Assembly (NCBI GenBank): GCA_013359445.1
Contig: JABWBV010000082.1
Span: forward strand, 1 to 16,404
Origin: Anaerolineales bacterium
GTDB taxonomy: Bacteria; Chloroflexota; Anaerolineae; Anaerolineales; JABWBV01
Direction of reading: 5' to 3'
DNA: 16,404 bases
Shown here: positions 4,266-16,404 of the stretch, piece after piece
How the letters are laid out: each line of letters begins with the position of its first letter
Position numbering within the stretch: the stretch's first letter is position 1
Position numbers and translations under genes: made by a program
The notes under the pieces: generated by a model
Seen by the model: only the letters and a program-made list of their open reading frames with translations
Databases searched by the model: none
Told to the model about the DNA's origin: nothing

Positions 4266-6872
4266 TCACTCACATCCGTAAAAAGTTCCCGCCACACCAT
4301 TCCAACAGACGTAATTGTTCCAGCGCCCGGAATTCCCGCCCAGCGCGTCTTTGATGGCCAGGGCCGCTCCATAGCCCCCGTTTTCCCACACGGTATCGTC
4401 CACCAACTCAAAGAGTTCGGCGTGAGAGGGCCGGTTCCCCGGACTGGTGTGGTAATCCCACCACATCCGCATCCAGTCCAACTCGTAGCCATAGTAATCA
4501 CAGACAAAGATCAGGCCGCCGGGATATTGCAGATGGCAGTATGGTTGATCATCGCCGATTTCCGCGTGATAGACGGTGTTGCTCCCGTCCCAGTAAACGA
4601 TGATCCCGTCCGGGTTCAGTTCGCTGACATCGTCGTGCGGATGATAGTTCCAGATATCCACCGCCACAAAGTGCCCCCACCCCTCCATCGAGGCACACGA
4701 ACCATATTCGACACCTTTCATCCCGTGCCCGGAACCATTGTAGGAGCAGTCGTTTTTATAATCAGCTACGGAAGCCAACAAACGGTGCCCGTATTCGTGC
4801 GCCAGGATGAATTTGCGCCGATATTGCCCGGAACTCATAAAGATTCCGGGTTGCCCGTACATATTCGTGGCACAGGATCCTTTGTCGGGATCATCCCCAC
4901 ATCCGGCTTTTTTCAGGTAATACGTGACGCCGTTCACGCCGCCGTTGAACCGTTCCTGGGCGGAATACGCCAGCATTCCCATCGAGTCGAAGTTCCACAT
5001 TTCCGGGCGGTAGATGTAATTGGGAAAAACGTTGTCAATCCACACAGCATAGTTCACGAGGTCCGAGGCGTCATTTGCCGCGGACGAAAGGTGACGCACG
5101 GTGATGTAGCCCCCCCCACTTTCAAGGCGCGCTTCGCCTTTCCAGGACGCATACACCCCAGCATTGGAAGTAGTGTTCACATAGGTACATCCATATCGGT
5201 TCAAATACCCATCGAATATTTTCACGCCGCTCTGCCAGAGGGACATTTTCGCACCGCGCGCCCGCCAACCGCTGTCTGAGGTACCGTAATCCTCGCCGAA
5301 GCCGTTATCGGTGGGGGCCACATACCACTCCAAACAGAAGGTGAAGGTGAACGTTGGCACGTCGGTTTCGGGCAATTGCACGAGGTTCAGACTCCCATCG
5401 CCGAGGCCCGCGCCGGGGGTGGGGAAGTCATCGCTGGTGCCAGGGTCCTCGGACTCTTCGATAATCACCGGGTCGCCGACTTCGTACATCACAAGGTCCG
5501 CCAACAGGGTGGGGTCTTCGCCAGAGGGGATAATTGCCTGGAGCATGGGGCCGATGGCGGCGTTGTGATCGAACTGGAGCGCGCTCGTCTGCCGGGCCAG
5601 ACCGAGTTCGTTGTACACCACAAGCTTGCCTTCAGGGTCGGTTTCTTCGGGGTGGAAGGCGAGGAAGGGGATTTCTATTTTGTAGAATTGTCCCGTTGCC
5701 AAATCCGTGACCATCACTTCGCCCATCACGCGGGCGGCTTCCCGGACTTTTTGCACGGCGGGGAGAAGTAACCCAATGAGAATCGGATCGGTTACGACTT
5801 CCCCGGCGAGGACGGTCATGGGTTCGCCTCGGTGTTCGGTTTGTTCGCCGCCGGAAAAGATCGTGAGCAGGTACTCGACTTGTTTATCGCTGTCGCTGTT
5901 ATTTGCAAAGGAAAGCAGAAGATTGTCGATATCGACCACCACACTGCTGTCATCGGTGGGGAGTTGCGGCCAGCCGAATTGCACTTCGGTGGGGATGCTT
6001 TCGTCCACGTGGGTGTCGTCATCGTCGGGGGGGGGAGGGGTTCCGCCACCGCCGCCCGCGACGAGGGGGAGAAAAACGGCGTGTTGTTCGTTCCAGCGAT
6101 AATCTTCGGTCTCGCCAAAGGTGTATCCTACCGCGGGGCCGGTGCCACTGTCGGAGGTAGCGGTTTGTTCGGCGACGGATAGCCGCATCCACAGGGGTTG
6201 ATCGGGATCGGGATTCCAGACGGTGAATACCGGGCTGACGAAGGAATACGTCCCCGGCCCTGGCAGGGTGAGGGACATGTTCTGCATCGCCCACTCCGAG
6301 ACGACCGCGGCAGTCCCCGGACAGGTTCCGGCGACCCCGCCCCAAGCCCCGCTCCGGTTCCAGTCCGCCCAAAGGTTGGCGTAGGCGACGACGCTGGTCG
6401 GGAAGGTGGCCGGAACGGTGACGGTAAAGCGCACGATCATTTCCTGGCAATGGGGCAGTTGGCGGGGGAGTTCCAGGCCGTTGTCTGCGCCGTCGTTGTT
6501 GGCGGCAAGGCCAAGGGTGCCCGTGATGATGAGGTTATTGCCGTCGGGGTCGGTGTCGATGCCGACGTCGGGCAATTCTTCGCCGCTGACGCCCGTGCCG
6601 AGGTAAAACGCGAGGGTGGTGTTATCGTGCCAGGGACCGTTGGCATCGAGGGTGGTGGGAAATTGCCCGGGGACCCCCGCATAGGCCTCGAACGCGGCCC
6701 CCGCGGAATTCGCGCTGTCGGGCGCGTCGCCGTAGTCGTGGGTGGGTGCGCCCCCACCGGGCAGGGTGAAGGGCAGTGGGGGATGATGCACCGGCGGTGG
6801 CGCGGCCGCGGTCAGGAAGGCGAACGCGATCAGCGTCACGCCCAGCCACGGGAGAAGTTGTTTGGGTTTCAT
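4266..6872 (-). CDS. Secreted zinc metallopeptidase (HEXXH zincin) with N-terminal GEVED-like domain and Gly/Pro/Asp linker
   Basis: The start is placed at the ATG at 6872 (MKPKQLLPWLGVTLIAFAFLTAAAP signal peptide) with a GGAGGT Shine-Dalgarno 5 nt upstream; the track's longer start at 6950 has no SD. The domain begins DYGDAP and ends GETEDY, the GEVED-family signature as recalled. A GGGGGTPPPPDDDD linker follows, and the C-terminal domain carries FILAHEYGHRL (HEXXH). Confidence 0.8.
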   Translation of the reverse strand: MKPKQLLPWLGVTLIAFAFLTAAAPPPVHHPPLPFTLPGGGAPTHDYGDAPDSANSAGAAFEAYAGVPGQFPTTLDANGPWHDNTTLAFYLGTGVSGEELPDVGIDTDPDGNNLIITGTLGLAANNDGADNGLELPRQLPHCQEMIVRFTVTVPATFPTSVVAYANLWADWNRSGAWGGVAGTCPGTAAVVSEWAMQNMSLTLPGPGTYSFVSPVFTVWNPDPDQPLWMRLSVAEQTATSDSGTGPAVGYTFGETEDYRWNEQHAVFLPLVAGGGGGTPPPPDDDDTHVDESIPTEVQFGWPQLPTDDSSVVVDIDNLLLSFANNSDSDKQVEYLLTIFSGGEQTEHRGEPMTVLAGEVVTDPILIGLLLPAVQKVREAARVMGEVMVTDLATGQFYKIEIPFLAFHPEETDPEGKLVVYNELGLARQTSALQFDHNAAIGPMLQAIIPSGEDPTLLADLVMYEVGDPVIIEESEDPGTSDDFPTPGAGLGDGSLNLVQLPETDVPTFTFTFCLEWYVAPTDNGFGEDYGTSDSGWRARGAKMSLWQSGVKIFDGYLNRYGCTYVNTTSNAGVYASWKGEARLESGGGYITVRHLSSAANDASDLVNYAVWIDNVFPNYIYRPEMWNFDSMGMLAYSAQERFNGGVNGVTYYLKKAGCGDDPDKGSCATNMYGQPGIFMSSGQYRRKFILAHEYGHRLLASVADYKNDCSYNGSGHGMKGVEYGSCASMEGWGHFVAVDIWNYHPHDDVSELNPDGIIVYWDGSNTVYHAEIGDDQPYCHLQYPGGLIFVCDYYGYELDWMRMWWDYHTSPGNRPSHAELFELVDDTVWENGGYGAALAIKDALGGNSGRWNNYVCWNGVAGTFYGCE

Positions 6873-6966
6873 AGCGACCTCCAAAATCTGGGGTGGGAGG
6901 TGAGCATCCCCTCTCACATCCCACCATAAGAAACTTGTAATTACGCACACGCAAAGCGTTAAGCTC

Positions 6967-7011
6967 GAAACAAGAATGACAGGAGGGACCTCCCCCTGTC
7001 ATTCTTGTTTT
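6967..7011 (-). terminator. Perfect 15-bp inverted repeat (hairpin H2) between the beta-helix protein gene and the metalloprotease gene; REP-like/terminator-like
   Basis: AACAAGAATGACAGG (6969-6983) pairs with CCTGTCATTCTTGTT (6995-7009); the 11-nt loop itself contains GGGA/TCCC. It lies 33 nt downstream of the stop of the 7044..9047 gene. The U-tract is weak (TTTTGG on the plus strand). It is sequence-related to the hairpin at 9111-9147. Confidence 0.45.
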
Positions 7012-7043
7012 GGAACTACACTTGGTGTGCCATAACCGATATT

Positions 7044-9047
7044 TTATTTGACCAAAAGCGGCAGGAATACTTGCAGGACGTATTCAAACGCCCCGATATC
7101 ACAGTTGCCCACGCGAGGATAGCCGCGCTGATCCACCTCGTTGACCACAGTGCCCGGATCACAATAGTAGCTATCGCCCGTGTCTACCGCCGCGCTGGTC
7201 GCGTCAAGCGCCCACGTCCACGTCGGGCCACCGTTGTTTTGCACCGCGCCGACTAATCCGGCGGGCGTACTGGGTTGGTCGCCTGCCGCGTTCAGGTTGC
7301 AGTCACTCCCTTCGGAGAGGTTGTGGCCGAGCGAGATCAGGTCGACCAGTGAGACGGTAGTGCAGGTGGCAAATGGGTGAGCGCCAAAAAGCGTGTTGAC
7401 CATCCAGACTTTGCCCAGGTTGTAGAGGGCACTGCCTTGCATCCCGTTTGCCTGATTAAGGGCGAGGGTGGTGTTGGTTGTGGTGACCAGTCCGGTGGCG
7501 GCAATGTACACGCCACCCCCAAGATCGGTGGCCATGTTTTCGGCCAGGGTGGAATTGATAAAATGCAGGCTATTATCTGTCCACAAGGCCCCCCCATCAT
7601 TTCCCGACGTGTTTAAGTGGAAAAGCGTGCCACGAATGAGGTTTTCATTGTTGGGAGATGAATTGCTCTTTTGGTAAATGGCTCCGCCGCTATCGCCCGC
7701 CGAATTTTCAGAAAAAGTTGAATCTTGCAATTGCAAGCGATAGTTGTGGATGTACGCGCCGCCACCAAAGCCTTCTGCCGTGTTGTGATGGAGACGCAAA
7801 CGTGTGCCTGTAAAAAATTGCGTGTACACCGCCCCGCCATCCAGTGCAGTGTTATCCAAAAAGGTCACATCGGTTCCCTCGAACCAGGTTAAAGCATACG
7901 CCGCTCCACCTTCCGTGGCTTGATTGCTTTGGTAGGTGCCCCCCTGCTGTTCGAGATAGGACACCGCCACCGCCCCGCCATGATCCCCCGCGGAATTGAG
8001 AGAAAAATTGGTTTCCACCAGGGAGAGCGTCCCCGAGCCTTGTGCGTAAATCCCCCCACCATCCGATCCGGCTGTGTTTTCCGAAAAAGTGGTCGCTATC
8101 ACAGTCAGGGCATCTGTCGTGAACGCATCGAAAGAATGCAAACCGCCCCCGCTTCCCGTCGTGGCTTCATTGACTTCGATCAAAGAATGGGAAATCGTAA
8201 TAGTTGCCGTTTGAGCAATCAGGCCTCCGCCGTCGCCGGCCGCCGTGTTGAGGGAAATCGTACTTGAATAGATTTCCGTCACCCCGCCTGCGATCCCGAT
8301 GCCCCCCCCACTGCCTGGGGTTGAATTGGCACGGACGAGTGCATTATTCAATTTTAGATAAGCCTCTGGCCCGGTGCTATAAATGCCACCTACGACTTCC
8401 ACCCCCTCATTCAATACCACCTGGGTGCCATCCAAAATCGCGCGCCCACCTAAACCACTAAAATTGAGGTTGTACAAGCCACCCCCGTACCCCGCGGTGC
8501 CATTGCGAAGCTCGCCGCCGTACATGGTAAAGGCCCCATCCTGATTGAGAACGATGCCCCCCACCGGCCCCGCGGCAAGGGTCACATCGCCATTGATCAG
8601 CGCCAAACCCGTTATTTCCACGGTCGCGTCGATCAGGTGCAGAACCCGATCGAGAAGCGCGGCATCAATGGTGGCGGTTCCGTTCTCTGCAACGACAAAT
8701 TGCACGTCGAGTTCCGCCGAATTATCGACAATATCCAAATCACCGGTGGCGGAGGCATCTTCGTCCATTCCAGCCAATGCCAGGGTGTAGGTTTCCCCGT
8801 TTGCAAGGGTGATCACGTCCGTTTCGGTGTCACTTCCGGCGGGGCACTCGCCCAGCACAATGCCGGAGACGGTGTTCGTGTTGGCAGAGATGATGGCTTC
8901 GCGCAACGAACAAACGCCATCTATCCCGCTCACCACATCCACAGCAGTGGTTACGGTGAGGGCGGCGGCTCGGACGGGACGCGCTAGCAATGCCCCGAGC
9001 GCCATAACAGCCAGCAACGATGAAAGTGCAAAACGTTTGAACAACAT
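7044..9047 (-). CDS. Secreted right-handed parallel beta-helix (Pmp-like repeat) protein with N-terminal CSLREA domain and C-terminal choice-of-anchor Q domain
   Basis: A 667-aa ORF with an AAGGAG Shine-Dalgarno 8 nt upstream of the ATG at 9047. The signal peptide is MLFKRFALSSLLAVMALGALLARPVRAAA. The literal CSLREAI motif is present. Many GGG(I/L/V)Y/GGA(I/V/L) beta-helix repeats follow. The C-terminus DQRGYPRVGNCDIGAFE matches the choice-of-anchor Q signature. Confidence 0.85.
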   Translation of the reverse strand: MLFKRFALSSLLAVMALGALLARPVRAAALTVTTAVDVVSGIDGVCSLREAIISANTNTVSGIVLGECPAGSDTETDVITLANGETYTLALAGMDEDASATGDLDIVDNSAELDVQFVVAENGTATIDAALLDRVLHLIDATVEITGLALINGDVTLAAGPVGGIVLNQDGAFTMYGGELRNGTAGYGGGLYNLNFSGLGGRAILDGTQVVLNEGVEVVGGIYSTGPEAYLKLNNALVRANSTPGSGGGIGIAGGVTEIYSSTISLNTAAGDGGGLIAQTATITISHSLIEVNEATTGSGGGLHSFDAFTTDALTVIATTFSENTAGSDGGGIYAQGSGTLSLVETNFSLNSAGDHGGAVAVSYLEQQGGTYQSNQATEGGAAYALTWFEGTDVTFLDNTALDGGAVYTQFFTGTRLRLHHNTAEGFGGGAYIHNYRLQLQDSTFSENSAGDSGGAIYQKSNSSPNNENLIRGTLFHLNTSGNDGGALWTDNSLHFINSTLAENMATDLGGGVYIAATGLVTTTNTTLALNQANGMQGSALYNLGKVWMVNTLFGAHPFATCTTVSLVDLISLGHNLSEGSDCNLNAAGDQPSTPAGLVGAVQNNGGPTWTWALDATSAAVDTGDSYYCDPGTVVNEVDQRGYPRVGNCDIGAFEYVLQVFLPLLVK

Positions 9048-9105
9048 AAAAACAAACTCCTTATGATCAGTTTTTAGGAATTACTCACCAAGAGAGGAAA
9101 TTTCA

Positions 9106-9151
9106 GAAAAAGGATGTCAGGGGAATGCACATCTCCCCTGACATCCTTTTT
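9106..9151. terminator. Perfect 14-bp palindromic hairpin (H1) flanked by an A-run and a T-run; bidirectional terminator-like, immediately 3' of small gene A
   Basis: AAAA (9107-9110), then AGGATGTCAGGGGA (9111-9124), loop ATGCACATC, then TCCCCTGACATCCT (9134-9147), then TTTT (9148-9151). It abuts the stop codon of the small gene at 9151-9153 and lies upstream of the 9047 start of the beta-helix gene. Confidence 0.65.
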
Positions 9152-9381
9152 CAAGGTTTACCCCTCTGTGCGGGAGTAATTACGTTAATTTTTTCCGTCT
9201 CTTCTGAGCCGGACGTTTGTTGATGCAAAAACAAAAATAACCGTTCCAGGTCTTCAAAATGCCATTCTTCCCCGGTCAAGACGTGGCGCGCCGTGGCCCG
9301 CCAGGGTGCGTCTTCCGCGGAACGCCACAAGCGGACGAGATAGGATTGATACATGGAGGAAGAAAGATTTCTTTCGGACAT
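9151..9381 (-). CDS. Small Trp/charged-rich conserved hypothetical protein, paralog A (76 aa)
   Basis: The start is ATG 9381 (MSERNLSSSMYQSYLVRLWR...) with a GGGAG Shine-Dalgarno 6 nt upstream; the track's start at 9393 is 4 codons longer. A paralog lies at 13282-13473 with the identical core EEWHFEDLERLFLFLH. That 16-aa identical block carries 7 synonymous and 0 nonsynonymous nucleotide differences, indicating purifying selection on this frame. The opposite-strand ORF 9259..9474 is not conserved in copy B. Confidence 0.7.
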   Translation of the reverse strand: MSERNLSSSMYQSYLVRLWRSAEDAPWRATARHVLTGEEWHFEDLERLFLFLHQQTSGSEETEKINVITPAQRGKP

Positions 9382-9385
9382 GGAG
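9205..9385. repeat. Copy A of an approximately 180-bp duplicated segment (direct repeat, about 75-80% identity, ungapped) carrying the small-protein gene
   Basis: It aligns without gaps to 13300-13480 at a constant offset of 4095 bp. For example, tgcaaaaacaaaaa[t/c]aaccg[t/c]tcca... and gcggacgagataggattgata occur in both copies. Confidence 0.7.
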
Positions 9386-9490
9386 ACTCCCATCTTACAA
9401 AATCCCCGTCACAAAAACGTAGCAAGCCCCCGCGCGTCCGCCTTCCCCGCCCGTTTCGAGAAGGAGCAGGGTAGTACTTGCGCGCTAGTT

Positions 9491-9496
9491 TATAAT
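9491..9496 (+). promoter_or_regulatory. Consensus -10 hexamer TATAAT placed 6 nt upstream of the DinB-like ATG; possible leaderless transcript
   Basis: TATAAT at 9491-9496 is followed by 6 nt (TTCAGC) and the ATG at 9503. No Shine-Dalgarno is present and no good -35 was found. Confidence 0.3.
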
Positions 9497-9502
9497 TTCA
9501 GC

Positions 9503-10021
9503 ATGAAAAAAACCATTTCTACCGAACCCACTCCAGAAAATATTCAGCACATTCTGCACATCCTTGCGGAAGTTCCAGCACACCTGGACAGACTCCGGCA
9601 AGGCATGGACGAACAGACTCTGAGAGAACCGCTGGCCCCGGACGAACGATCCTTCCATCAAATTCTAGCCCACCTCATCCACTGTGAAGCCCGCACCTTT
9701 GAAACGATCACCCTGGCCCTGCTCACTCATGAACCAGTCCTTTTCCCCATTCACCCGGAACGCGATTTCGGAAAGTTGTTCCCCTTCGAGCACCAACCCT
9801 TCTCCGATTTACTCGCCTACTTCAAACTCCGCCGCGCGGTGCTGTTGCCCGTGCTCAGTGGGCTGAACGAGAAAAAGTGGGCACGCGTGGTCCAGCAAGC
9901 AGGCAAACAACGGAAGGAGTCGGTGTACTGGCAAGCGCGCGTCCTCGCCCTGCACGAATGGGAACACGTGGAAGAGATCACCAAAAAGTTAGGGAGCGCC
10001 CCGTCCGTACTGAATCGGTAG
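9503..10021 (+). CDS. DinB/YfiT-like (DinB_2 superfamily) putative metal-dependent four-helix-bundle protein
   Basis: The start is placed at ATG 9503 (MKKTISTEP...); the longer track ORF from 9353 would overlap small gene A and lacks support. His-rich motifs are HQILAHLIHCE and the C-terminal LHEWEH (HxxxH), typical of the DinB_2 His triad. The protein is 172 aa. Confidence 0.65.
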   Translation: MKKTISTEPTPENIQHILHILAEVPAHLDRLRQGMDEQTLREPLAPDERSFHQILAHLIHCEARTFETITLALLTHEPVLFPIHPERDFGKLFPFEHQPFSDLLAYFKLRRAVLLPVLSGLNEKKWARVVQQAGKQRKESVYWQARVLALHEWEHVEEITKKLGSAPSVLNR

Positions 10022-10055
10022 CCTGCTTGCGTCCTGCGCCCCCGTTTGTACCGGG

Positions 10056-10061
10056 TACAAT
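10056..10061 (+). promoter_or_regulatory. -10-like hexamer TACAAT 6 nt upstream of the regulator ATG; possible leaderless start
   Basis: TACAAT at 10056-10061 is followed by AACCTC and the ATG at 10068. No Shine-Dalgarno is present. This is the same geometry as the DinB-like gene. Confidence 0.25.
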
Positions 10062-10067
10062 AACCTC

Positions 10068-13000
10068 ATGCCTGCCCCGCGCCTCGCGCTCACCCTCTTC
10101 GGGCCGTTTGAAGCCCTGGTCAACGCCCAGCCCCTCGCTTTTGCCACCGATAAAATCCGTGCGCTCCTCGCCTACCTCGCCCTCGAACCGGACAAACCCC
10201 ACCGCCGCGAAACCCTCGCCGCCCTGCTCTGGCCCGATTATCCCGACGAGACCGCGCTCCGCAACCTGCGCCAATCGGTGTACCGGCTCCGCCAAACGCT
10301 GGCCGACGCCGATCCCGACCTGCCCGCCCGCCTGATCACCCAAACCCGCCCAACCATCACTCTGCACGCCGCCGCGCTGACCACGGACACCGCCCGGTTT
10401 ACCGCCCTCGTGCAGGAGAGCCAAATTGCGCCTGATCCGCGCCCCCCTTTGACCGAATTGACCGCTCTCTACCGGGGCGAACTGCTGAAAGGGTTCGCCT
10501 TGTCCGACGCCTACGCCTTCGACGAATGGTTGAGCATCCAGCGCGAAATTTTCCACCAGCAAACGCTCGACGCCTTCACTCGGCTGATGTCGCGTCAGGA
10601 AAACGACCCCGACGCCCTGCTAACCACCGCGCCGCGCCTGCTGGCCCTGGCCCCCTGGCACGAAGAAACCCACCGCCAGATCATGCGCGCCCACTTGCAA
10701 AAAGGCAACCGCACGCAAGCCCTTGCCCAATACCAGACTCTCCGCACGACCCTGCTCCGCGACCTGGGCGTAGAACCCGCCCCCGCTACCACAGCCCTGC
10801 TCGCCCGCATTCAAACCGAAGCGCCTTACCCCGAAAACGCTCAAACCGCACCCATTCCCCCCCGCCCGACCCTGCGGAACTTCCCCGCGCCGCTCACCCC
10901 CCTCATCGGACGCAAAGCCGAACTGGACGCGCTCACTCAGATGCTGTCCGACCCCGCTTGCCGTCTGGTCACGCTGATCGGGCCGGGCGGGATGGGGAAA
11001 ACGCGTCTCGCGACCGAAACCGCGCGCCGCCTGTCGGCCCAGCCTCATCGGTTCACGGATGGGTTGTACTTCGTGCCGCTCACCCAACTCGAACAGGGGG
11101 AGTTGCTCCTCGCCACGGTGGCGCAAAACCTGGGCCTTACGCTTTCCGCCACCGCCGAGCCTCGCCGAGAACTCTTCCAGTATCTGCAAAGCCACCCCTC
11201 CCTGCTTCTCCTCGACAATTTTGAGCATCTCCTGCCCGACGCCGCGCCCATGCTGAGTGAACTTCTCGCCGCCGCGCCGGAGACCACGCTGTTGGTGACC
11301 TCCCGCGACCCGCTTGCCATTCAGGGCGAGTGGCTTTATCCGCTCGAAGGGCTGTCTTATCTTCCCGACCCGCGTGAAACTGACGCCCCGCTCGAACGCC
11401 CCGCCCCGCAACTGTTCATCCAAACTGCCCGCCGATACCGCCCGTCATTCGATCCCCCGGCCCACGCGGAATCCATCCTGGCGATCTGCCGCCTGACCGA
11501 TGGCTTGCCCCTTGCCCTCGAAATGGCCGCCGCGTGGATGCGCGCGTATTCCACCCAAGAAATCGCCGAACGCATTACCCAAAGCCTAGATTTTCTCACC
11601 AACCCCTATCGGGACGCGCCCGCCCGACAACGGAGCCTGCGCGCGATTTTCACTTCGACGTGGGAACAGCTCGCGCCGGAACCCCGCGCGGTGCTCGCCG
11701 CCCTGTCGGTGTTCCGGGGCGGGTTCACCGTCGCCGCCGCGTTAAACGTCGCCCAGGCTGGGGTTCTCGATCTGGCCGTGCTGGTCGAAAAATCCTTCCT
11801 GCGCCGCGCTGAACACCGTTACGATTTGCATGAACTGGTGCGCCAGTTTGCCGCCGAAAAACTAGGGGAGATGGGCCACGCGCCGGTGATTTTTGCCCGC
11901 CATGCGAACTTTTATCTCGCCACCCTGGCCCAACAAGCCCCTGGCTTGAACGGGCCATCCCCGCAGGAGGCGTTGTCGGCAATGCGCCAGGAGTTGGACA
12001 ATGTGCGCCACGCGTGGGCCTGGGCGGTCGCGAGGGCGGAGGTGCGGTTGCTCGAAATGGGACTGGAGGGGTTGGTACAGTTTTTTATGTTGACAGGGAA
12101 CCTTGCGGAGGGGGAAAACGCGGTCAAAAAGGCCCGCGCCGCTGTGTCGGCCCTGCCCGCGGCCCCCACGCCACTTCAAAGTCAGTTAGAGAGTTCGCTG
12201 GCGTGGTTCCGCGTGGGGTTGGGGAATCATCTGGCCGCGTTAGAAAATATTCAGGCCGCGCTGTCCCTTGCGGGGCAACATCTCCCCAGCCGCGCCCGTG
12301 CCCTTTCGATTTACGGGTGGGCGTTGCAAACAACCGGGAAGTATGCCGAAGCGGAAACGGCGTTGGAAGAGGCGATTACCCTGTTTGACCAAATGGGCGA
12401 TCTGTTTCAAAAATCTTTTGCGCTGATTCGCCTGGGTGGGGTTTATTGGCGGAGGCGGGATTTTGAGAAGACGCGGATGTATTATCAACGCTCGTTGCAA
12501 ATCGAACAAACGCTGGGAAACAAGCGAGGGATGACGCGCGCGTTCGGCGGGCTGGGGTTGGTGTATTTAAATCTGGAAAAATACCCGGAGGCGCTGGAAG
12601 GGTTGGGGCGGGCGCTGGAATTGGATCGGGAATTGGGAAATCTGGCAGGGGTGTCGCGCCATTTGGGGAACATTGGCGCGGCGCACTTGATTTTGGGTCA
12701 GTTTGAGCAGGCGCGGGCGTGTTTTGAGGAGGCGGCGGAAATGGATGCCCGGGCGGGGAATAAAGTGACGCTGGGCATTTGGAAGGAGAACCTGGGGATG
12801 GTGTTTATGCATCTCCAGCAGACGGATAAGGCGCGGCAGTGTTTTGATGCGTCCATTGGGTTGTTTCGAGAGGCGGGCAATCGGTTTAACTTGCCGGAGC
12901 CGCTGTTGGGCAAGGCGGATTTGCTGTTGGCGCGGGAGGAAGATGATGAAGCAAAAACGCTGATCGAGGAGGGGGTGCGCCTTTCGGACGAACTCAACCG

Positions 13001-13274
13001 CAAGGATACGCAGACCCGTGGGCGGCTGTTGCTCGCTCGTTGGCTCGCCCGGACCGATCCTGCCACCGCCCGCCAACAGTTGGAGACGATGCTGGCCGCC
13101 CTCGGTGATTTGCCCGCCGAGGAGACCCGCGCGCAGATTTATTTCGAACTCTGGCGCACGGATGGGCGCGAGGAGGATGCGGGGCGCGCGTTGGACCTGT
13201 ATCGGCGATGTTTGGGGAGGGCGCAGAAGTTTGAGTATCGGGTGAGGGTGGAGGCGTTGGAGCGTAAAACGTAG
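10068..13274 (+). CDS. AfsR/SARP-family large transcriptional regulator: OmpR-type winged-helix DNA-binding domain + BTAD, NB-ARC/STAND P-loop NTPase, C-terminal TPR repeats
   Basis: A 1068-aa ORF. The N-terminus LTLFGPFEALVNAQPL...KIRALLAYLAL is SARP-like. The BTAD region reads YRGELLKGF...DEWL...RLLALAPWHEETHRQIMRAHLQKGNRTQALAQYQTLRTTLLRDLGVEP. Walker A is LIGPGGMGKTRLA and Walker B is LLLLDNFEHLL. TPR-like repeats run through the C-terminal 450 aa. Confidence 0.9.
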   Translation: MPAPRLALTLFGPFEALVNAQPLAFATDKIRALLAYLALEPDKPHRRETLAALLWPDYPDETALRNLRQSVYRLRQTLADADPDLPARLITQTRPTITLHAAALTTDTARFTALVQESQIAPDPRPPLTELTALYRGELLKGFALSDAYAFDEWLSIQREIFHQQTLDAFTRLMSRQENDPDALLTTAPRLLALAPWHEETHRQIMRAHLQKGNRTQALAQYQTLRTTLLRDLGVEPAPATTALLARIQTEAPYPENAQTAPIPPRPTLRNFPAPLTPLIGRKAELDALTQMLSDPACRLVTLIGPGGMGKTRLATETARRLSAQPHRFTDGLYFVPLTQLEQGELLLATVAQNLGLTLSATAEPRRELFQYLQSHPSLLLLDNFEHLLPDAAPMLSELLAAAPETTLLVTSRDPLAIQGEWLYPLEGLSYLPDPRETDAPLERPAPQLFIQTARRYRPSFDPPAHAESILAICRLTDGLPLALEMAAAWMRAYSTQEIAERITQSLDFLTNPYRDAPARQRSLRAIFTSTWEQLAPEPRAVLAALSVFRGGFTVAAALNVAQAGVLDLAVLVEKSFLRRAEHRYDLHELVRQFAAEKLGEMGHAPVIFARHANFYLATLAQQAPGLNGPSPQEALSAMRQELDNVRHAWAWAVARAEVRLLEMGLEGLVQFFMLTGNLAEGENAVKKARAAVSALPAAPTPLQSQLESSLAWFRVGLGNHLAALENIQAALSLAGQHLPSRARALSIYGWALQTTGKYAEAETALEEAITLFDQMGDLFQKSFALIRLGGVYWRRRDFEKTRMYYQRSLQIEQTLGNKRGMTRAFGGLGLVYLNLEKYPEALEGLGRALELDRELGNLAGVSRHLGNIGAAHLILGQFEQARACFEEAAEMDARAGNKVTLGIWKENLGMVFMHLQQTDKARQCFDASIGLFREAGNRFNLPEPLLGKADLLLAREEDDEAKTLIEEGVRLSDELNRKDTQTRGRLLLARWLARTDPATARQQLETMLAALGDLPAEETRAQIYFELWRTDGREEDAGRALDLYRRCLGRAQKFEYRVRVEALERKT

Positions 13275-13281
13275 AACCAGA

Positions 13282-13473
13282 TCAAGAATCCCCCCTCTCC
13301 TTTCCCCCCGTCCGCTCGTGCAAAAACAAAAACAACCGCTCCAAATCTTCAAAATGCCACTCCTCCCCGGTCAGCACGTGCCGGACTGTCGCCCGCCAGC
13401 ACACTTCTTCTGAAGGACGCCAAAGGCGGACGAGATAGGATTGATAGGTGGAGGAAGCGTGGAGAGGGGACAA
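13282..13473 (-). CDS. Small Trp/charged-rich conserved hypothetical protein, paralog B (63 aa; apparent TTG start)
   Basis: (L/M)SPLHASSTYQSYLVRLWRPSEEVCWRATVRHVLTGEEWHFEDLERLFLFLHERTGGKERGDS. It has no in-frame ATG. The TTG at 13473 has AAAGG 7 nt upstream, and the frame is open upstream only to 13552 with no other start codon. Its stop lies 7 bp from the regulator stop on the opposite strand. Confidence 0.55.
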   Translation of the reverse strand: MSPLHASSTYQSYLVRLWRPSEEVCWRATVRHVLTGEEWHFEDLERLFLFLHERTGGKERGDS

Positions 13474-13480
13474 GAAAAAA
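13300..13480. repeat. Copy B of the approximately 180-bp duplicated segment carrying the small-protein gene
   Basis: Ungapped alignment to 9205-9385 at a 4095-bp offset, in the same orientation. Confidence 0.7.
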
Positions 13481-13500
13481 CCTTTACTTGCGAGTCGTTC

Positions 13501-13579
13501 CGGGAGCGAAATCCCTGAAACGGGCCATAAACGCCATCTGCGGGGGGCTGTTCATGTCGTCGTCTCAGGGATTTCTCCC
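13501..13579 (-). promoter_or_regulatory. Long-range stem structure in the 5' region of small gene B / 3' region of the FG-GAP gene
   Basis: CGGGA (13501-13505) and GAAATCCCTGA (13508-13518) pair with TCAGGGATTTC (13564-13574) and TCCCG (13575-13579). That is 16 bp with a 2-nt bulge, enclosing a 45-nt GC-rich loop. Confidence 0.4.
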
Positions 13580-13618
13580 GATGGTCGAAATGACGGATGG
13601 GAGAAGATGGGGGCTGAT

Positions 13619-13660
13619 GGACACGGAAAACCGAATGGTCAATCCGAGTCTTCCGTGTCC
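13619..13660 (-). promoter_or_regulatory. Perfect 10-bp stem-loop (GGACACGGAA / TTCCGTGTCC, 22-nt loop) downstream of the FG-GAP gene stop
   Basis: Seen directly in the sequence. There is no adjacent U-tract on either strand, so it is not a canonical intrinsic terminator. It could be a rho-dependent or attenuator structure, or part of a structured RNA. Confidence 0.4.
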
Positions 13661-13687
13661 ATCTGAGTTCGAGTCTGCTTTTCTGGC

Positions 13688-15427
13688 CTACCGCCCTAAT
13701 GCCCAACCAAACCGGTCATTCATCTCGGAGTCATCGGGAATGTCTGTCGATTCCTGATACCAGATTTGATTATCCACGGCGGTTAACCCGCTCCCCGATC
13801 CATATATGACATGGAGCGCCCCCGCGTCTGTCTCCGTGACCGCGTTCACCAAAACATCCTCATACGGAGCGCCCACCACCAGGTCGGTGAACCCATCCCC
13901 GTTGTAATCTCCGGCGGTCAAGGTGTAGCCGAACAAATCGTCCACTTCCGGCGCCCCCGTCACCAGGCCTTGCGCCCAAAGGTCTTGTCCGTCCGTGGAG
14001 AGCGTGGAGCCATTGCTATACAGCACCTGCACAAATCCCTGGTTCAACTGATCCCCATCCTGGAAGGGCACACCCACCGCCAGATCATCCACCCCATCAC
14101 CGTTGAAGTCGGCGGCGATCAACGCCTGTCCAAGTCGGTCCAGCGTCTCTGGCGCCCCCAAAATCCCGTCCAACCCCTGATAAAGAATCATATCGTTCGC
14201 GCCGGACAGCCCTCCTCCAATCGCCGAGCCGAACAACACATGCACGGCCCCCGCGTCGGTTTCATCGCCCACGCCATTATTCACATCCTCACCGGGCACA
14301 CCCACCACGAGGTCACCGGCACCGTTTCCATCAAAATCGCCCGCGGCCAACACCGTGCCGAAGCTATCATGATCTTCCGGGTTCCCTTGCACGCTATTTT
14401 CACCCTGTCGCCAGGCCGTTTCGCCCAAGAGCGAGATACCCGCGTCACTGCCCTGGAACACCATCACCGCCCCGACATTATCCACCCCCAATATGTCGTA
14501 ACCGGGAATGCCCACCGCCAGATCATCGAACCCATCGCCATCGAAATCTTCCGAAGCTAGGGCCGCCCCGAAATAATCGCCACTCGCCGGTTCCAAATCT
14601 ACCGATTCCAACCCGTGGTGGAAAATGATGTCGTCCAAGGCTTGCAAACCATCCGCCGAGCCATAAATGACATTCACCGCGCCCATCTCGGTAATCCCGT
14701 CCGATTCCAGGTCTTCTTTGGACGAACCCACCGCCAAATCCGCGAATCCGTCCCCGTTGAAGTCGCCGCTGATGAGCGCTTCCCCAAACCGGTCGCCCTC
14801 CTCCGCAAGGCCTCCAATCCCGTTCAAACTCTGACCGAAGGATTGTGTCCCGTTGTCGGTCAAACCCGTGCCCGGATACCCATAAATGACATCCACCTGC
14901 CCGACGTTGGTCATTCCATCCCGCCCCTCGCCAGGGGAACTGACCGCCAGATCGCTGGTCCCGTCCCCGTTAAAGTCACCTATCGCGAGGGCGAACCCAA
15001 ACTGCTCGTCCGGCAGGCTGACCCCAAGGATATTTTCCTGCGTCCAGAACTGATTGTTCTCCGCGTTCAGGCCATCTGCCGTGCCGTACAGGATTTGAAT
15101 TGCACCATTATCCGCCACCAACCCGTTGCGGTCTTCGGTCGGAATCCCGATGGCGAGATCGGCGTACCCGTCCCCGTTGAAGTCCACCAACCCGTTCGGG
15201 TCAGCGGGCGAACAGTCCAGCGTCCCCCCGCCAATCGAAGCAGGGCTGTCGCTGGAAATCGGGTTCCCGGCTCGTATAACAAGCGGCAGGTAAACCTGAT
15301 AACAGGTCGTCCCCCCCGCTACTGCAGGAGCAGGAGCCGCAAATGATCTCCCGTTCATGACAAAGGCTATCGCGATGAACAGGAAGAGGCTGATAATTTT
15401 TATACCGTTGAAAATTTTGTTTACCAT
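13688..15427 (-). CDS. Secreted FG-GAP repeat (integrin-alpha-like beta-propeller) protein
   Basis: The start is ATG 15427 (MVNKIFNGIKIISLFLFIAIAFVMNGRSFA|AP signal peptide) with an AGGAGA Shine-Dalgarno 7 nt upstream; the track start at 15481 lacks an SD. At least 7 FG-GAP repeats are present, e.g. DFNGDGYADLAIG, GDFNGDGTSDLAV, GDFNGDGFADLAVG, EDFDGDGFDDLAVG, GDFDGNGAGDLVVG, ADFNGDGVDDLAVG and GDYNGDGFTDLVVG. Confidence 0.85.
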   Translation of the reverse strand: MVNKIFNGIKIISLFLFIAIAFVMNGRSFAAPAPAVAGGTTCYQVYLPLVIRAGNPISSDSPASIGGGTLDCSPADPNGLVDFNGDGYADLAIGIPTEDRNGLVADNGAIQILYGTADGLNAENNQFWTQENILGVSLPDEQFGFALAIGDFNGDGTSDLAVSSPGEGRDGMTNVGQVDVIYGYPGTGLTDNGTQSFGQSLNGIGGLAEEGDRFGEALISGDFNGDGFADLAVGSSKEDLESDGITEMGAVNVIYGSADGLQALDDIIFHHGLESVDLEPASGDYFGAALASEDFDGDGFDDLAVGIPGYDILGVDNVGAVMVFQGSDAGISLLGETAWRQGENSVQGNPEDHDSFGTVLAAGDFDGNGAGDLVVGVPGEDVNNGVGDETDAGAVHVLFGSAIGGGLSGANDMILYQGLDGILGAPETLDRLGQALIAADFNGDGVDDLAVGVPFQDGDQLNQGFVQVLYSNGSTLSTDGQDLWAQGLVTGAPEVDDLFGYTLTAGDYNGDGFTDLVVGAPYEDVLVNAVTETDAGALHVIYGSGSGLTAVDNQIWYQESTDIPDDSEMNDRFGWALGR

Positions 15428-15474: not shown

Positions 15475-15665
15475 CCTTCATCCCCCGGCGAGCTGAATCA
15501 GCACAGGAAGACCGCCAGCACCACGCGTGCCTCCCATTCCAGCCCCGCCCGGCGATAATGTCGCCAGGCTACAACACGATGCCCGTTCAAACGGGCTTTT
15601 CCAGCCGGATTCATCCGGCGTCGTTGGTAGCCGGGGGATTTATCCCCCGGCGAGCCAAATGAGCC
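15475..15665. promoter_or_regulatory. Intergenic region (globin-to-FG-GAP) with a thrice-repeated motif TCATCC(CCC)GGCG and embedded palindromes; candidate operator/promoter region
   Basis: R1 TCATCCCCCGGCGAGCTGAATCAGC (15478-15502) and R2 TTATCCCCCGGCGAGCCAAATGAGC (15640-15664) match at 21 of 25 positions. A partial third copy TTCATCCGGCG lies inside the palindrome CCGGATTCATCCGG (15606-15619). R2 overlaps the palindrome CCGGGGGAT-TT-ATCCCCCGG (15634-15653). Confidence 0.4.
15581..15600 (+). terminator. Small terminator-like hairpin with U-tract on the plus strand (GCCCG-TTCAAA-CGGGC-TTTT)
   Basis: A 5-bp GC stem followed by TTTT, oriented for a plus-strand transcript. No convincing plus-strand gene lies upstream, so its function is uncertain. 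Confidence 0.25.
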
Positions 15666-15672
15666 ATGCTTT

Positions 15673-16086
15673 TTACGCGGGCTGATACGCCGCTTCTTGC
15701 ATCAACCCGCTCAACAACGCAAACGCGTTTTCCCACGCGGATTCCACTTCGGGCGTGTACGCCGCGCCCAGGCCTTTTTCCAGCGTCCACAACAACGCCG
15801 CGCCGACGGTGGCGTAATGTTCGGGGCGCACGCCGTACCCCGCGTGGCGTTGGCCCAGGCTTTGCACGGCGGGGATGATCCGTTCGGGGTTGTCCAACCC
15901 GATCACGACCAGTTTGAGGGCGGACATCAGTTTTTCGCCCTGGGTTTTCAAATCCGCTTTGAACAACGGGCGCAGGTTGGGGTCCAGTTCAAACAGCCGT
16001 CCGTAAAACAGCGAGGCCGCGGTGTCCGCAATGGGTTCCACCTGGGCAAAAGATTGTTGGAGGGTGAGAATTTCTTGTGTGTTCAT
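15673..16086 (-). CDS. Single-domain bacterial hemoglobin (3/3 globin, Vitreoscilla Hb / flavohemoglobin N-domain-like)
   Basis: A 137-aa ORF with an AAGGAG Shine-Dalgarno 5 nt upstream of the ATG at 16086. FYGRLFELDPNLRPLF, IIPAVQSLGQRHAGYGVRPEHYATVGAALLWTL and ESAWENAF align with the VHb/Hmp globin fold, including the proximal His in the HAGYGV context. Confidence 0.85.
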   Translation of the reverse strand: MNTQEILTLQQSFAQVEPIADTAASLFYGRLFELDPNLRPLFKADLKTQGEKLMSALKLVVIGLDNPERIIPAVQSLGQRHAGYGVRPEHYATVGAALLWTLEKGLGAAYTPEVESAWENAFALLSGLMQEAAYQPA

Positions 16087-16265
16087 TTTTAGCTCCTTTT
16101 GATTTCACCGAAAGCCCTACGACGCTTTTCGTTGTAGCATCCTGAGCGGAGGCTTTGCGAAGTCGAAGGATGCGGTGTCATTCATTTCAATTTCCCCATC
16201 TTACGCCCCCACCGTCAGCGCCTCGTCGCGGGAACGTAGGCGGAAAGACAAAAAAACCTCGCTTT

Positions 16266-16404
16266 TTCAAATGGATTAGTACCCAGGTTCGTAGTGCCGC
16301 ACCCCAGTGCGGTCCGGCACTGACGTGCCTCACTACAAACTGGATATTTCAGATGGCGTTGCACCCAGGTTCGTAGTCCCGCACGCCAGTGCGGTCCGGC
16401 ACTG
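16266..16404. repeat. Two copies of an 82-bp-period tandem repeat with nested palindromes, truncated by the window end
   Basis: 16281-16322 and 16363-16404 match at 40 of 42 bp (ACCCAGGTTCGTAGT[G/C]CCGCAC[C/G]CCAGTGCGGTCCGGCACTG). Weaker similarity extends upstream (TTCA[A/G]ATGG...). Nested inverted repeats are GTGCCG...CGGCAC and CCGCAC...GTGCGG. Confidence 0.6.

Follow-up and report, generated by a model that had tools for sequence, protein, structure and literature searches.

To our knowledge, NLR-like transcription activators of the AfsR type have been studied almost solely in Actinobacteria, as switches of antibiotic production. We have analyzed a regulator of this architecture from the phylum Chloroflexota. 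Its gene lies at positions 10068-13274 of the window, which is the entire 16,404-bp contig of an Anaerolineales metagenome-assembled genome (MAG), between two copies of a small gene that encode proteins of 76 and 63 aa. We consider it probable that the regulator activates the copy upstream of it (small gene 1) and the operon that follows this copy through a promoter box of two 11-bp direct repeats, forming a module that is AfsR/afsS-like by analogy and not by homology.

The high-affinity site of AfsR is the promoter of the adjacent afsS gene, and the direct targets found by chromatin immunoprecipitation sequencing are essentially afsS and wblH alone (preprint 10.64898/2026.09.02.748808). An F/Y-HD activation switch has been defined for the NOD of AfsR (preprint 10.64898/2026.09.02.748808). 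AfsS has no DNA-binding domain; it strengthens the DNA binding of AfsR, to which it binds by means of 2-5 short internal repeats in a protein of only 17-38% identity (PMC10832544). SARP promoters carry repeats at 11 or 22 bp, and contacts are made to the first 8 bp of each 11-bp repeat. The afs box spans -40 to -19, where the -35 is poor, and its 3' repeat lies about 8 bp from the -10 (PMC10936776).

EmbR of M. tuberculosis, ActII-ORF4, DnrI and RedD have a SARP domain homologous to that of the regulator, and their targets are likewise direct repeats at 11/22 bp. They are, however, small or medium SARPs without NOD and TPR (EmbR has FHA instead) and act as cluster-situated antibiotic or cell-wall regulators in Actinobacteria. 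MalT and the SARP-LAL proteins resemble the regulator in that a repeat sensor and a STAND NTPase gate a DNA-binding domain, but this domain is a C-terminal LuxR-type helix-turn-helix in the MalT type and an N-terminal SARP-type domain in the regulator. Within a limited literature collection we found no paper that links AfsR or SARPs with Chloroflexota.

Domain architecture of the regulator

The first-pass annotation had read the regulator as a SARP, NB-ARC and TPR protein with Walker A and Walker B motifs. This reading was borne out by Pfam matches above cut-offs and by alignment to AfsR (PDB 8k60), which gave the following features.

10068-13274, forward strand: large SARP regulator of 1068 aa (open reading frame and Pfam; N-terminus kept in orthologues)
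10080-10832, forward strand: SARP domain, OmpR-type winged helix and BTAD, aa ~5-255 (EmbR 2fez alignment, aa 5-255)
10899-11930, forward strand: NB-ARC-type NOD, aa ~278-621 (AfsR 8k60 alignment, aa 7-621)
10980-11003, forward strand: Walker A (P-loop) GPGGMGKT, aa 305-312, pairing with AfsR GIGGVGKT
11202-11228, forward strand: Walker B LLLLDNFEH, aa 379-387, pairing with AfsR LVLLDNAR
11502-11531, forward strand: GLPLA motif (GLPLALEMAA), pairing with AfsR LPLAIRIAA
11823-11849, forward strand: DLHELVRQF, with LHE at the position of the AfsR F/Y-HD (plant MHD) switch (RYDLHELVRQFA against AfsR RYRFHDLVRLYA)
12174-13157, forward strand: TPR sensor, aa ~703-1030 (Pfam TPR families)

Trans_reg_C (aa 27-89) scored 29.9 bits against a cut-off of 26.2, BTAD (aa 107-248) 70.9 bits against 22.1, and NB-ARC (aa 283-384) 44.5 bits against 23.5, with overlapping AAA_16 and NACHT matches. 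The families TPR_12, TPR_1 and TPR_2 covered aa ~700-1000 above their cut-offs (97.1 bits for TPR_12), and there was a weak match to TPR_MalT. Among solved structures, AfsR 8k60_I matched aa 7-621 (E = 2.8e-14) and EmbR 2fez aa 5-255 (E = 1.3e-12).

The regulator thus has the SARP, NOD and TPR architecture in common with AfsR of Streptomyces coelicolor (PDB 8k60, 8jke, 8hvr), and the Walker A, Walker B and GLPLA motifs align between the two. It differs from AfsR in its phylum and in its switch, where residue alignment gave L-H-E in place of F/Y-HD: the His is retained, Asp is replaced by Glu and Phe by Leu. With the NCBIfam AfsR equivalog NF053617 it scored 101.6 bits, far under the cut-off of 1430, and it therefore has AfsR architecture yet is no AfsR orthologue. 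From these comparisons the regulator is classified as a large SARP of the AfsR structural subgroup, that is, a predicted NLR-like transcription activator composed of SARP, NB-ARC and TPR. No kinase gene was found in the window from the open reading frame list and Pfam.

NB-ARC/NACHT-type NTPases with a TPR sensor also occur in bacterial NLR-like defence proteins, and the protein could accordingly be viewed as an antiviral STAND (Avs-like) defence NTPase and not as a transcription factor. However, its N-terminal 'effector' is a full SARP DNA-binding domain homologous to those of AfsR and EmbR, PADLOC returned a generic TPR model alone for it (E = 1.5e-11) and no match for its neighbors, and a conserved SARP-type promoter box, described below, adjoins its gene. 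A role in defence is therefore extremely improbable.

Two further observations concern the regulator gene. The TPR sensor region (12018-13274) was only ~27% identical to the corresponding region (6102-7259) of a syntenic locus, L001, whereas in the same comparison the SARP domain was 79%, the NOD 62% and the neighboring genes 47-87% identical. From these identities the sensor appears to evolve much faster than the other parts, or to have been exchanged. In the region 9500-11500 the G+C content increases: it is ~0.52-0.54 at 8500-10000 and reaches ~0.65-0.66 in the 5' half of the regulator gene, where the GC skew is strongly negative; this may merely reflect the Ala/Leu/Arg/Pro-rich composition of the protein.

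A conserved box upstream of small gene 1

For comparison, related loci were retrieved by a genome scan (n = 27; Ardenticatenaceae, Caldilineaceae, Litorilinea, Anaerolineae and Chloroflexia) and analyzed with tblastn and phmmer, using the window proteins as queries. Four further loci (L036, L038, L039/L040 and L041) were looked up with precomputed Pfam annotation, giving 31 loci in total. All sequences compared come from MAGs or metagenomes. The region upstream of small gene 1 contains the following features.

9151-9381, reverse strand: small gene 1, 76 aa, start MSERNL..., core aa 11-58, with a ratio of nonsynonymous to synonymous substitution rates (dN/dS) of 0.01-0.08
9392-9397, reverse strand: -10-like hexamer TAAGAT, 6 nt 3' of the box and 10 nt 5' of the small gene 1 ATG (sequence reading)
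9404-9425, reverse strand: candidate SARP box, two 11-bp direct repeats, TTGCTACGttt followed by TTGTGACGggg (comparative footprint)

A direct-repeat SARP site next to the regulator had been anticipated in the first-pass annotation, and the 22-bp box in 11-bp register is such a site. Its 19-nt core, TTGCTACGTTTTTGTGACG, is invariant in seven loci (L001-L003 and L005-L008), as is TGTAAGAT, while the remaining intergenic DNA of these loci could not be aligned. The TTGCTACGTTTTTGTGACG block consists of two 8-mers in 11-bp register. Close variants of the box were found in L009, L015 and L016. A match to the degenerate pattern TTGNNACGNNNTTGNNACG lies directly before the small gene, one per locus, in all ten of these loci, among which are Ardenticatenaceae, Anaerolinea and Ca. 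Hadersleviella. The 11 sites of this box class all follow one arrangement: the 22-bp box, 6 nt, TAnnnT, 7-12 nt and ATG.

No -35 hexamer was found at usable spacing before TAAGAT. Read from the sequence, the window box and TAAGAT match both the published SARP rule and the geometry of the afs box: each of the two boxes consists of two 11-bp direct repeats that end 6 nt before the -10, and neither has a good -35. The regulator gene itself is preceded by a -10-like hexamer.

10056-10061, forward strand: -10-like TACAAT, 6 nt 5' of the regulator ATG (read from sequence)

The regulator starts in L001, L005 and L008 have the form TAAAAT, 6 nt and ATG, which suggests a leaderless-type promoter. Since the -10-like hexamers lie 6 nt (regulator) and 7-12 nt (small genes) before the ATG, leaderless or near-leaderless mRNAs are suggested for both.

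In more distant loci the repeat sequences upstream of the small gene differ by lineage while the arrangement is unchanged, and the repeat classes track the SARP recognition helix.

L010: CTGGTAATGAC, three copies, spacing 11 bp
L011, L012 and L023: GGTAATGAT, two copies, spacing 11 bp
L033: TTCCGCGCACG, three copies, spacing 11 bp
L032: T(G/A)TGCG, three copies, spacing 11 bp
L028: CGGACG, two to three copies, spacing 11 bp
L035: TATAACG, two copies, spacing 11 bp
L018 and L020: TGGTTACG-type repeat, spacing 22 bp

The arrangement was quantified as the best 9-mer self-match in the 260 nt upstream of the small gene at offsets of 6-33. Self-matches of at least 8/9 were found in 10 of 20 loci at offset 11 and in 10 of 20 at offset 22, while any other offset gave 0-4. 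After two loci had been added, 16/22 reached this level at offset 11 or 22, compared to 1-6/22 for other offset pairs. In the control, 6.1% of 840 random windows from the same loci did so; the corresponding binomial p of ~2e-15 is merely indicative, because the loci are not fully independent.

Within the window the box occurs once at up to two mismatches. Since 1.65 matches are expected by chance in a sequence of this length, the single count proves nothing alone. The sole other TTGYKACG half-site (2264-2271) is within the GH57 coding region. We also considered that the box might serve the divergent promoter of the DinB and regulator genes. This was rejected, as the box is ~66 nt upstream of the DinB TATAAT and its orientation and position are wrong for SARP-type activation.

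One box or several in the window

The regulator is surrounded by the following genes.

4266-6872, reverse strand: exported GEVED-domain protein with signal peptide and HEYGH zinc-protease motif; the next same-strand gene, syntenic in L001, L002 and L003
7044-9047, reverse strand: exported CSLREA/PMP-repeat/choice-of-anchor-Q beta-helix protein, 667 aa, with signal peptide, in the 'cargo' position downstream of small gene 1
9503-10021, forward strand: DinB_2/YfiT-like (bacillithiol-transferase-like) gene between small gene 1 and the regulator, preceded by TATAAT and 6 nt before its ATG
13282-13473, reverse strand: small gene 2, encoding 63 aa from a TTG start; it is an old paralogue of small gene 1 and has no SARP box upstream
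13688-15427, reverse strand: exported FG-GAP repeat protein with signal peptide, upstream of small gene 2 on the same strand

That the regulator stands between two small-gene copies, and that the flanking GEVED, CSLREA/choice-of-anchor-Q and FG-GAP proteins are secreted and all encoded on the reverse strand, was correctly seen in the first-pass annotation; the DinB_2/YfiT-like gene had gone unmentioned. From this clustering around the regulator it had been proposed that a repeat at 11- or 22-bp spacing is shared by the neighboring promoters, so that the regulator would directly activate the PMP-like, GEVED and FG-GAP genes and both small paralogues. We found the box before small gene 1 only. 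Upstream of the PMP-like, GEVED, FG-GAP, small-2, DinB, regulator, GH57 and Band_7 genes the best matches had 4-7 mismatches in the 12 specified positions, and no 11/22-bp repeat rose above background.

The structured upstream regions noted earlier do exist. They are perfect 18-21-bp hairpins (z -3.9 to -6.7 by folding), but from their folds they look like terminators or repetitive extragenic palindromic (REP) elements and not like regulator sites. Furthermore, the only known orthologue of small gene 2, in L004, follows an FG-GAP gene and is not adjacent to the regulator.

Multi-promoter control does have a counterpart in a relative, L015 (Ca. Hadersleviella danica). There a box and small gene are followed, in this order, by a large SARP on the same strand, a second, identical box and a gene for a signal-peptide protein, with the two sites at 9950-9968 and 13491-13509. 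Judged by this arrangement, L015 is an autoregulatory variant whose cargo has its own box; direct control of cargo thus exists in a relative, since the second box directly precedes the signal-peptide protein gene. For the window, however, we hold direct activation of all these genes through a shared motif to be rather unlikely. Because there is a single box and small gene 2 is unlinked in L004, the conserved unit is a large SARP gene divergent from a box and small gene, with or without downstream cargo, and not a multi-promoter regulon. Of the proposed surface regulon, the link to the small gene and, via the small gene, to exported proteins is conserved, whereas the local regulon of several promoters and the link to small gene 2 did not hold.

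Linkage of large SARP and small gene in Chloroflexota

L001 is an independent 157-kb Anaerolineales contig. It carries the regulator (reverse strand), 447 bp, the small gene (forward strand) and then PMP-like, GEVED-like, GH57 and Band_7 genes, which is the order of the window. The short contigs L002, L003 and L005-L008 have the same core arrangement. A large SARP is directly divergent from the small gene in 18/23 loci with informative upstream sequence, the open reading frames ranging from 744 aa (truncated) to 1520 aa. The linkage of the regulator to the small gene therefore extends far past close relatives. In L015 one SARP immediately follows the small gene on the same strand and a second lies 2 kb upstream, and in L017 the SARP is 6.7 kb from the small gene. 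No nearby SARP was found in L016, L019 or L027 by tblastn and phmmer of the locus. Three of the four additional Pfam-annotated loci had SARP linkage.

L036: BTAD-NB-ARC-TPR gene divergent from the small gene, which is followed by the gene for a 6047-aa protein
L038: gene with BTAD and AAA_16 divergent from the small gene
L039/L040: SARP-NACHT-TPR gene divergent from an operon of the small gene and then an FG-GAP/He_PIG gene
L041: no SARP; small gene amid cadherin and laminin-G giant proteins

The gene 3' of the small gene is nearly always close and on the same strand, and in most cases its product starts with a hydrophobic signal at the N-terminus and contains extracellular repeat domains. These include PMP-like, NHL, LVIVD, TSP3, PKD, Big_9, DUF333 and FG-GAP domains in proteins of up to >3000-6000 aa (at most 6047). 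A PMP-like protein is encoded at this position in L001, L003, L005-L009 and L016. Other cargo was a twin-arginine translocation (Tat) sulfatase, a histidine kinase and even a second SARP.

The linked proteins were also found to change together: small proteins co-diverge with the SARP domains of their partners (Mantel r = 0.49, reached by 2/5000 permutations). Four MAGs carry two small-gene loci each. L010 and L020 come from the same MAG and have different repeat sequences and different SARPs, and thus represent different module types. Altogether, these comparisons suggest that a large SARP divergent from a box and small gene, with exported cargo downstream, is a conserved Chloroflexota module, of which a genome can hold two or more, with its own repeat for each type.

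Proposed regulation of small gene 1 and its operon

The most likely direct target of the regulator would be the promoter of the divergent small gene 1. A SARP dimer would bind the two 11-bp repeats (9404-9425, reverse strand) in place of the missing -35, by analogy to AfsR at afsS, and recruit RNA polymerase at TAAGAT; the regulator would thus act by activation rather than repression. Its activity would be gated by the nucleotide state of the NOD and by a signal read by the TPR domain. The product of a near-leaderless mRNA would then be a cytoplasmic beta3-alpha protein of ~65-76 aa. Most relatives have no terminator after the small gene, and in them the transcript would extend into the genes for large exported repeat proteins that follow. 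The corresponding genes of the window, those for the PMP-like beta-helix protein and next the GEVED protease, lie behind a terminator-like hairpin.

9108-9150, reverse strand: terminator-like hairpin with an 18-bp perfect stem and A4 and U5 flanks, directly 3' of small gene 1 (containing fold -38 kcal/mol, z -5.4)

L001, L003 and L005-L008 lack this hairpin; in these loci 0-11 nt separate the small gene from the gene that follows it (an ATGA overlap in L001). Because the small gene abuts the next gene in these loci, the window hairpin is regarded as a local addition.

The resemblance to AfsR thus extends to the predicted target, a neighboring small-protein gene. The arrangement differs: afsS is downstream of afsR, whereas small gene 1 is divergent from and upstream of the regulator. 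The neighborhoods differ as well, with secondary-metabolite genes around AfsR and exported repeat proteins around the regulator.

Several observations count against this interpretation. The window repeat is just 6/8 identical and statistically unremarkable within the window, and the case for the box for this reason rests on comparative data. The loci compared are phylogenetically non-independent. They were retrieved by a single peptide pattern, Y[QRF][SA]YLVRLW, derived from a 13-sequence subset that represents one sub-family, so that the results cover only part of the 1784-cluster small-protein family described below. The -10 hexamer and the transcription start of small gene 1 are predictions from the sequence, and small gene 2 is without a box. 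Finally, in L016, L019, L027 and L041 the small gene and cargo occur with no SARP nearby, and the tie of the small gene to cargo is therefore at least as tight as that to the SARP.

The small-protein family and its role

The two small proteins of the window, one of which is NCBI HUU38_08440, are 78% identical over 54 aa (E = 6e-32). Both genes are under strong purifying selection (dN/dS 0.01-0.12 at dS 0.7-3) and are on this ground considered real genes. The dS of 1.29 between them indicates an old duplication, copy 2 clustering with the L004 orthologue. Small gene 2 and the regulator gene are convergent, their 3' ends separated by an 8-nt gap.

No match to the small protein was found in Pfam, NCBIfam or PADLOC. 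Among solved structures it had no significant relative, the matches to dsRBD-like and COMM-like folds being weak and non-significant. An exhaustive profile search returned 1784 cluster representatives at E <= 1e-3, mostly of 60-90 aa. A word-indexed profile search gave 1504 proteins, all annotated as 'hypothetical', and all those with organism names were from Chloroflexota. The family consensus is Y-x-[SA]-Y-L-V-R-L-W-[RQ]-x5-7-W-R-A-x5-T-G-E-x3-F-x2-L-E-x-L-F-x-F-L, and L15, R17, W19, W27 and F42 are invariant across 117 members. With these 117 sequences AlphaFold2 predicted three strands and one helix (beta-beta-beta-alpha) for the core, aa 11-58, at a predicted local distance difference test score >90. 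Tandem fusions of two units exist (P0049, 146 aa; P0117, 110 aa) and hint at a dimeric working form. On sequence grounds this ~65-aa family appears to be previously undescribed, with at least 1784 sequence clusters.

The small protein is similar to AfsS (AfsR2, 63-87 aa) in that it has no recognizable DNA-binding domain, is encoded beside a large SARP gene and has a promoter with a SARP box. The AfsS sequence is built of repeats and poorly conserved, whereas the small protein has no internal repeats, a single predicted beta3-alpha core and residues that are invariant phylum-wide. Homology to AfsS was rejected on account of the lack of repeats and the single conserved domain. Unlike afsS, the small gene usually heads an operon of exported proteins.

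The conserved and aromatic-rich small products might alternatively be precursors of ribosomally synthesized and post-translationally modified peptides (RiPPs) or secreted signals, with the NB-ARC-TPR protein as biosynthetic scaffold or receptor. The regulator does match the cyclophane-RiPP protein HaaT (NF041717) over aa 251-1029 with 100.8 bits, but this is far under the cut-off of 1125 and reflects generic NB-ARC and TPR similarity. Neither the window nor the annotated related loci encode a radical-SAM or other modifying enzyme. The small proteins show no leader/core organization; their whole core is conserved, with a confidently predicted globular beta3-alpha fold. We give this explanation very little credence.

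A cargo- or transcript-directed role is a serious rival. The SARP would still regulate the operon, and the small protein would serve the cargo, either as a chaperone or export pilot or as an elongation or anti-termination factor for long operons and hairpins such as that at 9108-9150. This would agree with the finding that in most loci a large exported protein is encoded right after the small gene, in some cases (L016, L019, L027, L041) with no SARP in the vicinity, with cargo genes of >3000-6000 codons and with the strong hairpins between window genes. The conserved Arg/Trp/Tyr-rich beta-sheet, together with the dsRBD-like and COMM-like fold matches, makes nucleic-acid or protein binding possible, but those matches are non-significant. 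A fold-specific chaperone is unlikely since cargo folds are very diverse (beta-helix, propellers, Tat sulfatase, histidine kinase, second SARP). The two module types L010 and L020 each have their own small paralogue, and small proteins co-diverge with SARPs, which fits a cognate partner better. On balance we regard service to the cargo or its transcript as unlikely.

For the same reasons, namely the co-divergence, the module types with their own paralogues and the diversity of cargo folds, a cognate-partner role is favored. By analogy to AfsS, the small protein most likely serves its SARP as a regulatory partner specific to the module, either a co-activator (feedback) or an anti-activator, and not as a cargo-specific factor.

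Other features of the window

In L001, L005-L008 and all distant loci the DinB gene is absent from the position between small gene and regulator, and it is present there in L002 and L003. For this reason it looks like an insertion into the divergent pair; it is probably incidental and outside the conserved module.

A second hairpin lies between the PMP-like and GEVED genes.

6968-7010, reverse strand: hairpin with a 19-bp stem

It has the arm motif ATG(T/A)CAGGGG(G)AG in common with the hairpin at 9108-9150, and the two may be copies of a REP-like palindromic element. The region 13474-13687 (reverse strand) contains a 20-bp-stem hairpin without a U tract and then a long hairpin (21-bp stem, ~45-nt interior) that ends ~30 nt before the TTG start of small gene 2. 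The order of FG-GAP 3' end, hairpin and small gene 2 orthologue is also present in L004. A consensus promoter and terminator scan gave nothing useful at the key intergenic regions and overlooked the large hairpins later shown by folding.

Upstream of the FG-GAP gene, 15482-15672 is dense in short GC-rich hairpins and has two copies of GCTCGCCGGGGGAT ~170 nt apart (reverse strand). Further upstream, 15673-16086 (reverse strand) encodes a 137-aa globin-family protein (Pfam Globin, E = 3e-16). At the contig end a 68-nt direct repeat (16255-16322 and 16337-16404; 84% identity, spacing 82 nt) carries a CCGCAC...GTGCGG hairpin in each copy. The second copy is cut off by the contig end, and the assembly was therefore probably interrupted by a repeat array or dispersed element. 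No RNA families or tRNA were found in the window with Rfam at gathering thresholds and ARAGORN.

Significance

The loci described here indicate that the AfsR-type class is widespread outside Actinobacteria, in Chloroflexota, together with a promoter box whose geometry is identical. The SARPs of this phylum are tied to a small protein that is both conserved and structured, as well as to genes whose very large repeat products are exported. The loci also yield many predicted pairs of SARP recognition helix and DNA repeat, which form a data set for SARP specificity and for orthogonal SARP/promoter pairs. A second small partner beside AfsS, non-homologous to it, could tell if a small partner is a general trait of NLR-like transcription factors.

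We tentatively propose a further step, of which we are considerably less confident than of the control of small gene 1 by the regulator. The beta3-alpha protein of ~50 residues, once induced through the box, might bind back to the TPR/NOD of its own SARP or to the complex of SARP, RNA polymerase and DNA. The result would be a switch, self-reinforcing or self-limiting, by which cells of filamentous Chloroflexota become committed to the production of giant surface or exported proteins. If so, a large SARP with a private small protein would be an ancient two-component logic, like AfsR-AfsS by analogy. A genome could hold several orthogonal module types, each with its own DNA repeat, and their outputs would be cell-surface proteins, not antibiotics. 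The module flags candidate regulators of surface and adhesion proteins in the filamentous Chloroflexota of activated sludge and microbial mats.

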